In this document: in pieces, positions 15,805-62,524 of the stretch
Layout of the letters: each line of letters starts with the position of its first letter
How positions within the stretch are numbered: the first letter of the stretch is position 1
Assembly (NCBI GenBank): GCA_963422435.1
Contig: OY729511.1
Location: forward strand, 244,208 to 308,207
Direction: 5' to 3'
Length of the DNA stretch: 64,000 bases
From: Candidatus Binatia bacterium
Lineage (GTDB): Bacteria; Desulfobacterota; Binatia; Bin18
The notes under the pieces: generated by a model
The model's database searches: none
Seen by the model: only the letters and a program-made list of their open reading frames with translations
Told to the model about the DNA's origin: nothing
Made by a program: the position numbers and the translations under genes

Positions 15805-15894
15805 TGGCGGAGAGGGGGGGATTCGAACCCCCGATACCCGAAGGTATACACGATTTCGAGTCGTGCGCAATCAACCGGACTCTGCCACCTCTCC
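15805..15894 (-). tRNA. tRNA-Ser(CGA)
   Basis: GGAGAGGTGGCAGAG...CACGA-CT CGA AA-TCGTG anticodon arm, long variable arm, GGTTCGAATCC T-loop, encoded CCA end. Confidence 0.97.
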
Positions 15895-22743: not shown

Positions 22744-22768
22744 GCCTGTCTTGAGCGGAGTCGAAAGG
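22744..22768 (+). repeat. Mini-element copy, intergenic (25-bp variant)
   Basis: gcctgtcttgagcggagtcgaaagg; its end runs into the purine-rich RBS region of the next gene. Confidence 0.75.
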
Positions 22769-49593: not shown

Positions 49594-50852
49594 ACCGCTC
49601 GAAGCTTTTTCCCCGCCGGCCCGGCCGGTCCTGCGCCTGTCCTGAGCGGAGTCGAAGGGCCCAGTCGAGGGGCCGGAGCACTGACGCTGCCAAAGGCTCT
49701 ACGGATACCGCGGACCGCCTGTCGGGTCCGATGCTCATTCTCGATCAATGCAAAGCGAACGTAGTCTTCCCCATACGGCCCAAAACCGATTCCCGGGGAC
49801 ACCGCGACCTTGGCTTCCGTCAGGAGAAATTCCGCAAAAGCCATGGAGCCCATGACCCGTAGCGGCTCCGGGATGTGCGCCCAGACAAACATCGTGCCTT
49901 TGGGTTTGGGGATAGGCCAGCCCACCCGCTCCAGGCCGTCAATCAGGACATCGCGGCGAAGACGATAGCGCTGGCGCATGTCTTCCACGCAGTCCTGGGG
50001 GCCGTTCAAGGCCTGAATCGCGGCGATTTGAATGGGCTGAAAAATACCGTAGTCAAAATAGCTTTTGAGCCGGCCCAGGGCCATGATCGCCTCGGGATTA
50101 CCGCAGGCAAAGCCCACCCGCCAGCCCGGCATATCGTAGGATTTCGACAGGGTAAAGAACTCGACCCCAATCTCTTTTGCGCCCGGCACCTGAAGAAAGC
50201 TCGGCGGCGTATAGCCGTCAAAAAAGAGGTCGGCATAGGCAAAGTCGTGAATGACAAACAATTTATGCTCACGGGCAAATTCCACGACGCGCGTAAAAAA
50301 CTCAAGGTCCACAACGGCCGTTGTCGGATTATGCGGGAAGCACAGCAGCAAGACCTTGGGCCGCGGCCAGCACTGCTGAACCGTTTCCTGAAGGGAGGTA
50401 AAGAAATCTTCCCCCGGTCGGAGCGGAACGACCCGCAAATCGGCATTGGCCATCACAATCGAATACTGATGGATGGGATAGGTCGGACTCGGGCAGATGG
50501 CCACGTCACCCGGACCGAGAATCGACAGCGCCAAATGGGATAAGCCTTCTTTCGAGCCGATGGTCACAATGGACTCGGACTCGGGATCAAGCTCTACCTC
50601 AAAGCGGCGTTTATACCACTCACAGATCGCCAGGCGCAGTTTGTACAGCCCGCGGGAGGTTGAATAGCGATGATTCTGCGGCTTGGTCGCGGCCTCAACC
50701 AGCTTGTCCACCACATGCTGCGGAGAGGGATGGTCGGGATTGCCCATCCCAAAATCAATAATATCCTCCCCCGCCCAGCGGGCCTCCATTTTCATCGTGT
50801 CCAGGGTGGCAAACAGATAGGGCGGAAGCCGTTTAATACGTGGGAATTCCAT
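49590..50852 (-). CDS. Class I/II PLP aminotransferase (AlaC-like)
   Basis: [35 protein letters not shown]. Confidence 0.9.
49624..49671 (+). repeat. Two nested copies of the 24-bp mini-element
   Basis: gccggtcctgc[gcctgtcctgagcggagtcgaagg]gcccagtcgaggg; inner copy 49635-49658. Confidence 0.78.
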
Positions 50853-57066: not shown

Positions 57067-59271
57067 CTACCCCACCCGGGCCAACTCCAGCCGGCCGGCC
57101 CAGCGATCTTCGAGAACGGCGCGCAGCCGGCGGGATTCGGCTGTCGTCAGGTTAGGGTCGCGTTCGAGCCAGGCCAGGGCTTCGTCTCGCGCGGTTTCCA
57201 GCAGTTTGCTGTCGCGCACGATATTGGCCACCCGGAAGTCGGGCAGGCCGGACTGGCGCGTGCCCAGAAACTCGCCCGGCCCGCGAAACGCCAGGTCGGC
57301 TTCGGCAATTTTGAAGCCGTCGTCGGTTTCCGTCATGACCTGAAGACGCCGCAGGGACTCGTCGCCCGGCGCGTACTGGGCCAGCAGCAGACACAATGAG
57401 GCCGCCTGCCCGCGCCCGACTCGTCCGCGCAACTGGTGCAACTGGGCCAGGCCGAAGCGTTCGGCATGCTCAATCACCATGACCGTCGCGTTGGGCACGT
57501 CAATGCCAACCTCAATGACGGTGGTCGAAACGAGCAGGTGATGCTCGCCGGCCTTGAAGCGCTGCATGACCGCGTCTTTTTCGTCGCCCTTCATGCGGCC
57601 GTGGACGAGCCCGACCGAATATTTGGCAAAGAAAGTCTGGGCCAGCTCTTTGGCCATGGAGGTCGCGGCCTTCAGGTCGGACTTCTCGGATTCCTCAACC
57701 AACGGATAGACCACATAGGCTTGATGCCCCCGTTCGAGCTGGTCTTTAACCAGATGATATGCCTTTTTCCGCTCGCCTTCATGGAACACATGGGTCGTAA
57801 TCGGCTTGCGGCCCGGCGGGCGTTCGTCCAGGGCTGAGACATCCAGGTCGCCGTACAGGGTCAGGGCCAGGGTGCGGGGGATGGGGGTGGCGGTCAGCAG
57901 CAGAATATCTGGATTCGCGCCCCGTTTCCGCAAGGCGGCGCGCTGCATCACCCCAAAGCGATGCTGCTCATCCACAATGGCCAAGCCCAGATGCTGAAAG
58001 CGCACGCCCTCCTGGATCAGGGCGTGCGTGCCAACCGCCATCTCGACCTCGCCCCGTTCCAGGAGCCCGTAGATCTCTTGTTTCCGTTTTGGGCGGATTT
58101 CTCCGGTCAGCAGCGTCATGGACAGGCCGAGCTGCTCGGCCAGCGGCGTCAGCGTCCGGTAGTGCTGCTCGGCCAGGAGTTCCGTCGGAGCCATGAAGGC
58201 CACCTGGTAGCCGCTATCGAGGGCGGCCAGGGCCGCAAAGAAAGCCACGATGGTCTTGCCCGAGCCAACATCTCCCTGGACCAGGCGGTTCATCGGGTGG
58301 GGAGCGGCCATATCCAGAAAAATCGCCTCGACCACTCGCTCTTGGGCCGCGGTCAATTGGAACGGCAGGATACCGTACACCTGCCGGACGAGCGGCCCCG
58401 GCACAATGGACAACCCCTCTTCCCGGACGGTATTGCGCCGGCGCAGCGCCATCCCCAGTTGCAAATAAAAGAGTTCGTCGAACACGACCGCCCGATGCGC
58501 CTGAGAGGTAGCCGCATTGAGTTCAGCAACCTCAGCATCGAGCGAAGGGCAGTGCAACTGCCGCAGGGCGTGACTGAGCGGCATCAGGTGCAGGCGCTCA
58601 CAAATGTCCTGCGGCACGCCGTTGGAGACCTGATCGACATAGAGGTCAACGGCACCCTGCACGACCCGCCGCATGGCAGCCACCGTCATTTCGGTGGTCT
58701 TATTATAAATGGGCAAGACGCGGGCGGTCTCGTCGTCTTCCTCCAGCGGCTCCATGTCCGGGTGGATCATCCACTTGCCACCCTTCATGCCCTTCTCAAC
58801 CTTGCCGTACAGCAGGACCCGCTGACCAAGCTGATAGCGCTGCTGAAAATAGCGATGCTGGTGATACCACAGCAGAAAGAGAAAACCGGTTTCGTCTCGG
58901 ACAACGGCTTCAAGCACCCAGCGACGCCGACGGGCCAGAAAGCGACGTTCCATCCGGGCGATTTGGCCGCTGACCGCCGTCTCATCTCCCATCTGAAGAT
59001 GACAGATTTGCTTGATTTCGCGCCGGTCCTGATAGCGGAAGGGAATATGGTAGAGCAGGTCTTCGACCGTTGCTATGCCCAGCCGCGCCAACTGCTCGGC
59101 CCGACGCGGGCCCACGCCTTTGACATACTGCACCGAATTTTTGAGCGCCGGTCCTGAGCCCGGTCGAAGGGGCGGCTGAGACGAACGAAAAGACCGCACC
59201 GGAGCAGCCTTCCCCTCTCCCCTCTCCCCTAGCCCCTGTCCCCTGTCCACTTTTGACTTTCCGCCAGCCAT
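57067..59271 (-). CDS. recG: ATP-dependent DNA helicase RecG
   Basis: VKGVGP, QGDVGSGKT, DEQHRFG, TATPIPRT, QLRGRVGRG, RGPGE. Confidence 0.97.
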   Translation of the reverse strand: MAGGKSKVDRGQGLGERGEGKAAPVRSFRSSQPPLRPGSGPALKNSVQYVKGVGPRRAEQLARLGIATVEDLLYHIPFRYQDRREIKQICHLQMGDETAVSGQIARMERRFLARRRRWVLEAVVRDETGFLFLLWYHQHRYFQQRYQLGQRVLLYGKVEKGMKGGKWMIHPDMEPLEEDDETARVLPIYNKTTEMTVAAMRRVVQGAVDLYVDQVSNGVPQDICERLHLMPLSHALRQLHCPSLDAEVAELNAATSQAHRAVVFDELFYLQLGMALRRRNTVREEGLSIVPGPLVRQVYGILPFQLTAAQERVVEAIFLDMAAPHPMNRLVQGDVGSGKTIVAFFAALAALDSGYQVAFMAPTELLAEQHYRTLTPLAEQLGLSMTLLTGEIRPKRKQEIYGLLERGEVEMAVGTHALIQEGVRFQHLGLAIVDEQHRFGVMQRAALRKRGANPDILLLTATPIPRTLALTLYGDLDVSALDERPPGRKPITTHVFHEGERKKAYHLVKDQLERGHQAYVVYPLVEESEKSDLKAATSMAKELAQTFFAKYSVGLVHGRMKGDEKDAVMQRFKAGEHHLLVSTTVIEVGIDVPNATVMVIEHAERFGLAQLHQLRGRVGRGQAASLCLLLAQYAPGDESLRRLQVMTETDDGFKIAEADLAFRGPGEFLGTRQSGLPDFRVANIVRDSKLLETARDEALAWLERDPNLTTAESRRLRAVLEDRWAGRLELARVG
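59147..59170 (+). repeat. 24-bp mini-element copy in the recG 5' region
   Basis: gccggtcctgagcccggtcgaagg, read as PLRPGSGP on the coding strand. Confidence 0.75.
59212..59260. repeat. Degenerate heptamer tandem repeat (7 x 7 bp)
   Basis: cccctct cccctct cccctag cccctgt cccctgt ccacttt tgacttt. Confidence 0.75.
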
Positions 59272-59278
59272 ACCCCTC

Positions 59279-62200
59279 TTATCCGTGATATTCCTGAAGC
59301 GGGCACACGCCGAGCAGGCCCCGCTTGAGGCGGGTAATGCCTTCGACCGCTGCTTCCGCTCCCGCCAGCGTCGTAAAATACGGCACCTGACACTCCAGGG
59401 AACTCCGCCGAATCGAAAAGGAATCCTTGATAGACTGAGCCCCCTCGGTCGTATTAATGACCAGATCGATCGAGCCCGCCTGGAGGGCATCCACAATATG
59501 CGGGGAACCTTCCAGAACTTTATTCACCATCTCAACAGACAGCCCGTGCTGCCGGAGAAATGCACAGGTGCCGCGCGTCGCCACCATAGAGAAGCCATTC
59601 TCCGCCAACTGTTTGGCAATAGGCAGGGTGGCAGGTTTATCGCGGTCACGAACACTCAGGAAGACCTTGCCCGTTTCCGGCAAGATATTCCCCGCCGCAA
59701 ATTGCGCTTTGACAAAAGCCATGGCAAAGGACTGGTCCACCCCCATGACTTCGCCGGTTGACTTCATTTCCGGTCCCAGGATGGTATCCACGCCGGGGAA
59801 TTTAATAAACGGAAAAACCGCTTCTTTGACGTTGACATGAGCGGGAATGACTTCCTGGGTAAAACCCAGTTCGTCCAGGGTTTTCCCCGCCATGACGCGC
59901 GCGGCTATCTTTGCCAGCGGAATGCCGATCGCCTTACTCACAAACGGCACGGTCCGTGAGGCGCGCGGATTCACCTCGATCAGAAAAACCTGCTGATCCT
60001 GAACGGCGAACTGGATGTTCATCAGGCCAACCACGCCCAACTCTCGGGCCAACAGAGTGGTTTGCCGCCGAATCTCAGCCTGCACCGCGGCCGACAGGGT
60101 GCGCGGCGGGAGCGAACACGCACTGTCACCGGAGTGGACACCGGCGAGTTCGATATGTTCCATAATGCCGCCGATCACCACAGCCCGGCCGTCGCTCAGA
60201 GCGTCGACATCAACCTCGGTGGCGTCATCCAGGAATTGATCGATCAGGACCGGCCGCTCCGCGGACACGGACACGGCCTCGCGCATATAGCGTCGCAGGC
60301 TTGCCTCGTCATACACCAGCTCCATGGCCCGTCCGCCCAGAACATAGGAGGGACGGACCAGCACCGGATAGGCAATGTCCTGGGCGATAACCACGGCTTC
60401 CTCAACCGACCGGGCGGTGCCATTGGCAGGCTGTCGCAGGTCGAGCCGTTCGAGCATCCGCTTAAACCGTTCGCGGTCCTCGGCCCGGTCAATGGCATCT
60501 GGCGGCGTGCCCAGAATTGGCACCCCGGCCCGTTCGAGCGGCACGGCCAGCTTGAGCGGTGTCTGCCCGCCGAACTGAACAATGACCCCATACGGCTGTT
60601 CGCGCTGTACGATACTCAGCACATCTTCCAGCGTCAGCGGCTCAAAATACAGCTTGTCAGACGTGTCATAATCTGTGCTGACGGTCTCGGGGTTACAGTT
60701 CACCATAATGGCTTCAAAGCCGTCTTCTTTGAGCGCAAAGGCGGCGTGCACGCAGCAATAGTCGAACTCGATGCCCTGGCCGATCCGATTCGGCCCGCCA
60801 CCCAGAATGATCACCTTCTTGCGATCAGTCGGCTGGGACTCGTCTTCTCCTTCGACTTGGCTCAGGACAGGCCCTTCGTAGGTTGAGTATAAATAGGGCG
60901 TGTGGGCCACAAATTCGGCGGCGCAGGTGTCTACTGTTTTATAGACCGGAATCACGCCCAGACGTTCGCGTTCGGCCCGGACGGCATCCTCGCTGACACC
61001 GAGCAGACGGCCAAGATGGACGTCAGAAAAGCCCATCTGTTTCGCCCGGCGCAACAGGCCGGGCGGTAATACCGCCCCGGTGGTCTCATCCGTCCCCCCC
61101 GCCCGCTGGACCTCTTTTTCGCACTCTACGATGTGCCCGATATTATCGAGAAACCACGGATCGATTTTTGAGAGCTGATAGAGTTCATCCACACTCATGC
61201 CCAGGCGGAGCGCTTCCGCCACAAACCACAACCGCTGGGCGTTTGGGGTTTGCAGGGACGCGCGCAGGGCGTCCAGCGGCGTCTCGGCGGGTAGAGATTC
61301 AAACCCGTAGCTGTCGATTTCGAGCGAACGCAGGGCTTTCTGAAGCGCCTCCTTGAAGGTCCGACCTATGGACATGGCCTCACCGACCGATTTCATCTGC
61401 GGTCCGAGCAAATCCCGCGCTTGGGGAAATTTGTCAAAAGTAAAACGCGGCATCTTGACCACTACATAGTCGATCGTGGGTTCAAAAGAGGCTGGTGTCT
61501 CGCGCGTAATATCATTCGGAATTTCGTCCAGGGTATAGCCCACAGCCAGTTTTGCGGCAATTTTGGCAATCGGAAAGCCGGTGGCTTTACTCGCCAGAGC
61601 CGACGAGCGGGACACCCGGGGGTTCATTTCAATCACGACCAGCCGACCGGTCTCCGGGTGGACGGCGAACTGGATATTGGACCCGCCCGTGTCCACCCCA
61701 ATCTCGCGGATGATGCGCAGGGCCGCATCCCGCATGAGTTGGTATTCCTTATCGGTCAGGGTCTGGGCGGGCGCGACCGTAATGGAATCACCGGTATGGA
61801 CGCCGAGCGGGTCGAAATTTTCGATGGAACAGATGATGACCACATTGTCCTGGGTGTCACGCATCACTTCCAGTTCAAACTCTTTCCAGCCGGCGATTGA
61901 CTCCTCAATCAGAACCTCATGGGTGGGAGAGGCCTGCAAGCCCCACTCGACAATGGTCTGAAACTCCTGCGGGGTCTGGACGATCCCGCCCCCGGCCCCC
62001 CCAAGAGTGCGGGACGGTCGGATAATCAACGGCAGGCCCAAGGTCTCGCGCAAGGCATAGGCTTCCTCAAGAGAGTGGATATAGCCGCTCCGGGGCAGGT
62101 CCAGCCCGATGCGCTCCATGGCCGCCTTGAACAAGTCTCGGTCTTCGGCTTTCTTGATGGCCGGTAGCTTGGCCCCGATGAGTTCCACTCCGTAGCGGTC

Positions 62201-62524
62201 GAGAATACCGGCTTCGGCCAGGTCAATGGCCAGATTCAAACCGGTCTGGCCGCCAATGGTCGGCAGCAGGGCGTCTGGACTTTCCCGTTCAATAATTTTT
62301 TCAAGGACGGGCCGGGTCAGCGGCTCAATATAGGTCCGATCGGCAAAATCGGGGTCGGTCATAATTGTGGCCGGATTCGAGTTGACGAGTATGACGCGGT
62401 AGCCCTCCTCTTTGAGCGCCTTGCAGGCCTGGGTGCCTGAATAATCGAATTCACACGCCTGGCCAATCACAATGGGGCCGGAGCCAATCAGTAAAATGGA
62501 ATGGAGGTCTGTACGCTTGGGCAT
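59279..62524 (-). CDS. carB: Carbamoyl-phosphate synthase large subunit
   Basis: [23 protein letters not shown], two ATP-grasp halves, MGS domain. Confidence 0.99.
60849..60872 (-). repeat. 24-bp mini-element inserted in frame in carB
   Basis: gcctgtcctgagccaagtcgaagg; gives [18 protein letters not shown]. Confidence 0.88.

Follow-up and report, generated by a model that had tools for sequence, protein, structure and literature searches.

In a stretch of 64,000 nt from a Candidatus Binatia bacterium (GCA_963422435.1, contig OY729511.1, positions 244,208 to 308,207 of the forward strand), here called the window, the gene carB for the large subunit of carbamoyl-phosphate synthase (CPS) carries an in-frame insert of 24 nt (60849..60872, minus strand). 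This insert is a copy of a dispersed repeat. Our best explanation, which taken as a whole we hold to be probable, is that the repeat unit is a derivative of a hairpin repeat associated with a small gene for a GIY-YIG nuclease. The same explanation, judged under the same overall probability, includes that the insertion happened in an ancestor of this species and that the eight extra residues are read through.

In-frame insertions of repeats of the repetitive extragenic palindromic (REP) type or resembling Rickettsia palindromic elements (RPE) are already known, as is the published pairing of a nuclease with a repeat. New here are the one-armed 24-nt form with exact ends, the natural pairs of filled and empty alleles together with nested and tandem reuse of sites, and a box motif which lies outside the published definition of SRM repeats and is tied to one GIY-YIG clade across phyla. 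The question what moves in-frame selfish repeats such as Rickettsia RPE has long been open, and Chenal et al. 2025 (PMC11893778), who described the Ssn nuclease, are silent on coding insertions and on mobility. The genus studied here offers clean natural experiments (exact ends, at least 10 filled/empty pairs, hot spots, and nested copies), and the tie between boxes and nuclease makes an Ssn-type mobilisation of repeats directly testable.

The 24-nt insert in carB

The host gene carB (59279..62524, minus strand, 1081 aa) was identified from its open reading frame (ORF) and by a phmmer match to the E. coli CPS large chain 1bxr_A (1444 bits, residues 1-1060). The insert, GCCTGTCCTGAGC-CAA-GTCGAAGG, is read in frame as PVLSQVEG (CarB residues 550-557). 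On the minus strand, the sequence at this point is tac gaa ggG CCT GTC CTG AGC CAA GTC GAA GGa gaa, confirming the 24-bp string and the eight added residues that had been given in an initial annotation of this DNA. In the alignment with 1bxr_A, the E. coli protein is 7 residues shorter than this CarB at the insert, and the extra residues are placed between E550 and A553. Here, in a linker of variable length, the oligomerisation domain of CarB reportedly meets the second synthetase half (Thoden et al. 1997). The initial annotation had also seen CGAAGG repeats on both sides of an 18-nt core, which had to be corrected: the left CGAAGG consists of carB's own codons (TAC GAA GG) and is also present in empty alleles, the unit is the whole 24 nt with the right-hand CGAAGG included, and there is no consistent target duplication.

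For comparison, the carB linker was analyzed in 30 loci of relatives, of which 23 were read by regular expression; four of the seven misses were read as DNA and are without the insert. Exactly 24 nt are absent from 14 of the 19 same-genus loci with a linker read, which is the exact gap of eight residues that had been expected for close relatives. The spacing from YS[ST]Y to LGGGPNR is 16 residues in 13 same-genus loci, 17 in one locus (L020), and 24 in this CarB. As DNA, the empty same-genus alleles read TACGAAGG(G/C)GAAGAC, and the gap is exactly 24 nt. Filled alleles were found as well: L010 and L011 carry the identical 24 nt with the same eight residues, L016 has two units in tandem at the insert site, and L037 a 44-aa composite of related modules. 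Outside the genus, the four loci read by regular expression each have 16-17 linker residues.

Contigs of the public sequencing runs X2, X3, and X5 cover a 321-nt stretch, insert included, with 0 differences; contigs as nearly identical as these may come from the very sample that gave this DNA, and their independence is therefore incomplete. In run X7, which bears another organism label, one contig aligned with '24 letters left out at 60849' and thereby shows the same gap. From the empty alleles, the X7 gap, and the unchanged contigs it follows that the carB insert is real and polymorphic. Orthologues filled throughout, or a failure of reads to support the insert, were not seen. In one genome of the comparison (G001), two full-length carB matches with 95-96% identity to this carB were observed.

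The initial annotation had predicted that the insert would map to a surface loop. In an AlphaFold model of CarB (22-row alignment, mean predicted local distance difference test score (pLDDT) 68), it lies in a coil stretch (residues 526-564) with pLDDT <50; conserved parts, e.g. residues 337-412, are modelled equally poorly, so the model speaks weakly for a surface loop.

A second insertion hot spot is located in carB after GFES at about residue 411 (61285..61300, minus strand) and is empty in this genome. Of the relatives, L037 and L017 have one unit in reverse orientation there; L011 and L018 each have two units arranged as an inverted pair. At this second site, the residues of this genome differ from the GFESTNGSVETP of most relatives, a difference which might be a scar of excision or deletion. 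In a 5-gene tree and in carB trees alike, the genomes with the carB insert fall into two groups that are not sisters. Also, the upstream and the downstream part of carB gave conflicting trees, a conflict suggestive of recombination.

Copies of the unit in genomes and in protein genes

With up to three mismatches, the carB 24-mer has 3 matches in the window, where 0.00 were expected from 100 shuffles. In the 3.92-Mb genome of this DNA (G000), the same search gave 34 matches vs 0 in the reversed genome used as control, and a second exact copy lies at about G000:2451294. The consensus CCTGTCCTGAGC-N2-3-GTCGAAGG with up to three substitutions yielded 80 genome copies and again 0 in the reversed genome; 31, 20, 16, and 13 of them have 0, 1, 2, and 3 substitutions, respectively, and 40 are found on each strand. 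A logo of 38 good copies is conserved from the G before CCTGT to the G after GAAGG, while the three central bases are variable and the flanks random. The unit consensus is [G]CCTGTCCTGAGC-NNN-GTCGAAGG[G]. Most of the genome copies are intergenic.

Four copies are located in the window, starting at about 22745, 49636, 59148, and 60849. The copy nearest to that in carB (GCCGGTCCTGAGCCCGGTCGAAGG, one mismatch; 59147..59170, plus strand) lies ~110 nt beyond the stop codon of carB, its orientation being opposite to that of the copy in the gene, and its site is empty at gap 0 in L016 and filled in L011. At 49635..49658 (plus strand), a nested copy is found inside an older degenerate one, with the outer parts GGTCCTGC before and GCCCAGTCGAGGGG after the unit. 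The copy at 22745..22767 (plus strand) is degenerate and has two mismatches to the 23-nt consensus. An Rfam search of the whole window at gathering thresholds gave nothing at the copies; the sole match was a tRNA gene (15808-15894, minus strand).

Among the 28 genomes of the genus, 24 contain 2-56 copies (up to two mismatches, control 0), with G007 (56 copies), G006 (45), and G031 (30) as copy-rich members. When the phylum was sampled evenly (301 genomes from 200 genera), the unit was present with at most one mismatch in 20 genomes from 17 genera, compared with 1 match of the control pattern; one genome of this sample has 61 copies. In a genome from another family of the phylum, four identical units follow each other head to tail with a spacing of exactly 24 nt (G206:C104:4562-4656).

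Two further observations concern the surroundings of copies in G000. Ten of the 80 copies (e.g. 616332, 2451295, 3150116) are centred in a second repeat, with CTCTCCC..GGAG(A)G before and GG..GGGGTGAGGG after the unit, which looks like another hairpin family that was entered by the unit or travels with it. The intergenic copies 222862, 1477314, 1745639, and 1454106 are in sense orientation, with a likely start codon following 10-25 nt after their end, and the GTCGAAGGGAG end of such start-proximal copies resembles a ribosome-binding site.

To find copies in protein genes, a codon-usage score was used, by which 13 of the 80 copies lie in open, coding-like frames on both sides. Nineteen spanning ORFs were extracted (the scored copies without carB plus seven borderline ones), and ten of them were submitted to Pfam. 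Nine were confirmed, with the copy within or between domains: GatB, a class I/II (HisC-like) aminotransferase, GcvT, SecA, an M1 aminopeptidase (pepN), a PMT_2 glycosyltransferase, a DEAD-box helicase, an HlyD-type adaptor, and an epimerase/DUF1731 protein. Together with carB, at least 10 genes carry an in-frame copy, judged by their conceptual translations and Pfam matches. The ORF across copy 108284 (L051) gave no Pfam match and was left out of the coding count; the copies 436836, 1689998, 1454106, and 1899862 are possibly coding by score, lie outside the Pfam set, and were not counted. In secA (G000:3353121-3356867, an open frame of 1248 aa), a nested double unit is read as ACSE-PVLSPVEG-PGRRAG at residue 739, in a stretch without Pfam match between the P-loop and the wing/scaffold matches.

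The unit is read in five frames, as PVLSxVEG, ACPEPxRR, PSTxLRTG, LRxGSGQA, and PFDxAQDR, and a stop is present in just one of its six frames (LS*). The 80 copies, the five open frames out of six, and the occurrence in at least ten genes bear out the proposal of a very small non-autonomous element that is tolerated in frame, similar to RPE and shorter. A selection for the 3-nt spacer, i.e. for the 24-nt unit, in coding copies was not significant (9 of 10 vs 51 of 70 others, Fisher p = 0.44). For annotation, it is relevant that peptides derived from the unit in these five readings recur in real proteins as well as in spurious ORFs.

Alternatively, the eight extra residues might stem from an ordinary lineage-specific indel in the linker of CarB or be a peptide under selection in the protein, their likeness to other loci being a coincidence. 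The linker does vary in length, as seen from the shorter E. coli protein and the one extra residue in L020. This explanation is refuted by the second locus with 24 of 24 identical positions, by the 80 copies vs 0 in the control, and by the five frames, and we leave it practically no probability. Since the copies are read in five frames and are mostly intergenic, a protein-level cause is excluded.

A different cause at the nucleic acid level would be a selected DNA or RNA signal which is kept for the host and has the coding copies as by-products; examples would be a binding site, or a sequence that modulates recombination or the uptake of DNA in the manner of the Neisseria NTS. Such a function has a precedent in the NTS/SsnA pair, described as modulating transformation in N. 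meningitidis (PMC11893778), and several sense-orientation copies between genes directly precede start codons and have GAAGGGAG-like sequence. The low copy number (2-56 per genome), the patchy distribution in the phylum, and the insertions in enzyme cores are fitted better by selfish spread, and we therefore regard a host signal as very unlikely.

Insertion sites and a GIY-YIG nuclease gene

A scan of the locus sets revealed 10 sites in the genus with filled and empty alleles, at which the removal of exactly 24 nt leaves a gap of 0. Two of these sites are intergenic, one of them being window 59147-59170. In gatB, 7 of 25 genus loci are filled, including one nested double and one copy 6 nt shorter, and 18 are empty. 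The aminotransferase site is filled in 4 and empty in 20 of 25 genus loci, and one locus has an extra piece of 15 nt. This locus (L093, from genome G014) contains the 15 extra bases CCCCGGCACCCCGGC, read as PRHPG, exactly at the position of the 24-nt unit in other genomes; the piece may be a decayed or partly deleted copy. The site in gcvT is filled in this genome alone among 22, and that in pepN in 4 of 24 read loci.

The sequence shared by flank and element end amounts to 6 nt at carB site 1 and to 0-3 nt at the other filled/empty sites. As the shared stretch varies by site, a consistent target-site duplication was not found at the ten pairs, and a target logo showed no junction consensus and no conserved target tetranucleotide. 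A likeness of the flanks to the tandem unit junction was weak (permutation p = 0.12 left, 0.078 right, 0.03 combined). The claim that the element inserts at sites resembling its own end is thereby retained as a slight tendency and given up as a general rule, with 0-6 nt shared. In five cases of nested copies, read by eye, the inner unit lies between CCTGA and GC of the outer copy. Sites are also reused in different arrangements: carB site 1 holds single, tandem, and composite forms, gatB single and nested ones, and carB site 2 a single unit or an inverted pair. The unit is thus of fixed 24-nt length, enters without target duplication, and reuses hot spots and its own copies.

These junctions bear on the alternative that host replication or repair copies the units by microhomology-guided template switching, without a dedicated enzyme and with the nuclease gene merely situated in a repeat-rich spot. 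The 6 nt (CGAAGG) common to flank and unit end at carB site 1, the right flank GCCGGT in hisC with its resemblance to the unit start, the constant internal position of nested copies, and the flank likeness that is weakly above chance when both sides are combined would all suit such copying. Against it, only 0-2 nt are shared at pepN, carB site 2, and gcvT, and the identical unit ends at ten unrelated sites are not explained by simple slippage. We consider this host-repair alternative unlikely, although it has more weight than a host signal, and come back to it with the gene association.

The explanation by a nuclease-associated repeat is based on the gene P0002 (G000:63114-63407, outside the window), which encodes a single-domain GIY-YIG nuclease of 98 aa (PF01541, E = 5e-18, residues 3-74) and is the only small GIY-YIG ORF in G000. 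Among solved structures, the protein is closest to 1zg2 (E = 7e-19) and 1ywl, both from UPF0213, and an NCBIfam search with P0002 gave no family. The gene is bracketed by repeat modules, among them two copies of the unit family. These modules also hold a longer form, CCGTTCGTCCTGAGC-GTAGCGGAGCGAA-GTCGAAGGATGAACGG, which folds into a hairpin with an 11-bp stem (-8.7 kcal/mol, z = -1.67). In G004, G039, and G014, the long form is present upstream of the homologous gene in the gene's orientation and inverted downstream of it.

A public set of 80 homologous loci (L160-L239), with proteins 56-91% identical to P0002, was used to examine this arrangement. The bracket motif CCTGAGC-N1-25-GTCGAAGG occurs within 200 nt of the gene upstream in 67, downstream in 74, and on both sides in 61 of the 80 loci, compared with 0 and 0 for a control pattern; most often, the motif is direct on the upstream side and inverted on the downstream side. 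The flanks usually take the form of the hairpin CCGTTCG(T/C)-CCTGAGC-YT-GTCGAAGG-(A/G)YGAAYGG. The boxes CCTGAGC and GTCGAAGG are common to the 24-nt unit and the longer hairpin repeat, and compared with the hairpin form the core is retained in the unit, with the 5' arm shortened and the 3' arm reduced to 3 nt. The record titles of the 80 loci name Binatia, Nitrospirota, several proteobacterial classes, Methylomirabilis, Verrucomicrobia, and Fibrobacterota, so that close homologues of P0002 at this range of identity are found in records labelled as many phyla. As far as can be judged from these records, this points to frequent horizontal transfer of the nuclease gene together with its flanking repeats. 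For host-repair copying, such a strong association of motif and gene across phyla, without a single control match, is difficult to accommodate; the many copy-rich genomes without a small GIY-YIG gene speak in its favor.

Under the explanation that we prefer, the 24-nt unit would be a stripped-down, one-armed derivative of the nuclease-associated hairpin repeat of an Ssn/SRM-type system. It would spread in trans on single-stranded DNA (ssDNA), with the nuclease cutting at the unit edges and host ligation or repair copying subsequently joining the unit into its site. Cutting at the edges followed by host joining would also account for the fixed length and for the lack of a target duplication. 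Where the nuclease gene has been lost, the unit would persist as a relic. The survival of in-frame copies would be explained by a length divisible by three, by the five open frames out of six, and by landing sites in tolerant loops. The more specific claim that an Ssn-type GIY-YIG nuclease drives a cut-and-rejoin or cut-and-copy process on single strands in trans, and that this process acts directly on the one-armed 24-nt unit, is put forward tentatively as possible and rather doubtful. If it were true, the unit would be among the smallest mobile DNA units and would insert without target duplication; precise excision would be possible, as would a preferred re-entry into own copies at the position seen in the nested cases.

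Several observations weigh against the preferred explanation. The 24-nt unit has no stable fold on either strand (DNA minimum free energy -1.4 kcal/mol, z = +1.09). Homologues of P0002 are present in just 7 of the 28 genus genomes, and ~13 of the 28 have no GIY-YIG match in an open frame <250 aa (by eye), including the copy-rich G007, G006, and G031. Conversely, G013 and G017 possess a P0002 homologue and 0 copies of the unit. Copy-rich genomes without the gene and carriers of the gene without the unit mean that the copy number does not track the nuclease gene; the former would be explicable by relic copies after gene loss, and equally by a host-repair mechanism. The published SRM pattern matches 0 of the 80 genome copies and 0 of the 80 nuclease loci (within 200 nt); genome-wide it has 52 matches vs 28 in the reversed genome, none of them on a unit copy. 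To account for the two carB-positive groups, it has to be assumed that the unit entered the site more than once, that it was lost precisely, or that alleles were exchanged. Copy orientation relative to the replichores defined by GC skew is without bias (43 vs 37), although this comparison is uninformative, as the cumulative skew extremes at 2.12 and 3.33 Mb are not opposite to each other. GIY-YIG enzymes hydrolyse DNA and are not known to form a covalent intermediate, and therefore a joining step by other factors must be assumed.

Comparison with known repeat systems

A REP/REPIN-type element moved by a RAYT, i.e. by a Y1 transposase like those of IS200/IS605, would be another source of short dispersed repeats. 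The likeness to these 'peel and paste' systems consists in exact ends, the lack of a target duplication, and a plausible structure-guided mechanism on single strands. Also, the size is REP-like (20-40 bp), and singlets, inverted pairs, and clusters occur as described for REP and BIME arrangements (PMC3733652). In contrast, the Y1_Tnp domain (PF01797) had no match in G000, G007, G012, and G002, with hits in G006 only; a GTAG tag and a palindrome are both lacking in the unit, and no conserved target tetranucleotide was seen. Movement by a RAYT is therefore highly improbable, even more so than a host signal. A GIY-YIG hydrolase is not known to rejoin DNA by itself. With miniature inverted-repeat transposable elements, the unit shares being non-autonomous, dispersed, and polymorphic between relatives, and it differs from them in having neither terminal inverted repeats nor a target-site duplication and in being 3-10 times shorter.

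RPE (Ogata et al. 2000/2002) are reportedly palindromic and about 100-150 bp long. The likeness to them is that of a selfish repeat which lies in frame in essential genes and is presumably read through and tolerated in loops, here in carB and the nine genes with Pfam confirmation; the difference is that the present unit has 24 nt, is non-palindromic, and occurs in an unrelated lineage.

CGTC-tagged REPs, including Rickettsia RPE-4 and RPE-6 and Neisseria CGTC-1, occur singly, as dimers, or in clusters, as described by Di Nocera et al. 2013 (PMC3733652). According to the main text of that study, GTAG- and CGTC-tagged REPs occur in frame inside known genes of several species, and no dedicated transposase or enzyme had been found for CGTC-type repeats as of 2013 (PMC3733652). 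The box strings of the unit are absent from this main text, and its Additional file 3 may list the motif; a literature search for the box strings returned primers and unrelated hits only, among the matches listed. Common to both are short repeats as singlets and clusters, in frame in genes, and the long form described here, CCGTTCGTCCTGAGC, contains CGTC. The tag is present in part of the long forms, since position -1 is T in 18 of 45. Whereas the CGTC-tagged repeats are palindromic stem-loops, the 24-nt unit has TGTC and a potential stem of 3 bp only. If the unit is a nuclease substrate as tentatively proposed, Ssn nucleases would be the long-sought mobilisers of CGTC-type REPs and of RPE-like in-frame insertions.

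A further comparison is that with the ssDNA-specific nuclease SsnA and the NTS/SRM repeats, for which Chenal et al. 2025 described a repeat-gene-repeat architecture and ssDNA cleavage next to the repeat (PMC11893778). Ssn systems are characterized there by a nuclease of the CDD family cd10448 cutting ssDNA beside its repeat, and by an inverted repeat of 20-50 nt forming a hairpin (PMC11893778). NTS are rarely intragenic (2% in N. meningitidis 8013), and the text of this article does not mention in-frame copies, while its supplementary tables may list the box motif (PMC11893778). The system described here differs as follows: the published pattern HGTCWY...RNCYNB fits neither the copies nor the loci, which have the boxes CCTGAGC and GTCGAAGG instead, and the dispersed 24-nt unit is not a hairpin, unlike the longer form beside the gene. 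The likeness comprises the small single-domain GIY-YIG gene (98 aa here vs 94 aa for SsnA of N. meningitidis), the inverted copies of a short, genome-dispersed repeat on both sides of this gene, the occurrence in many phyla, and a repeat orientation which is set by a non-palindromic 5' part.

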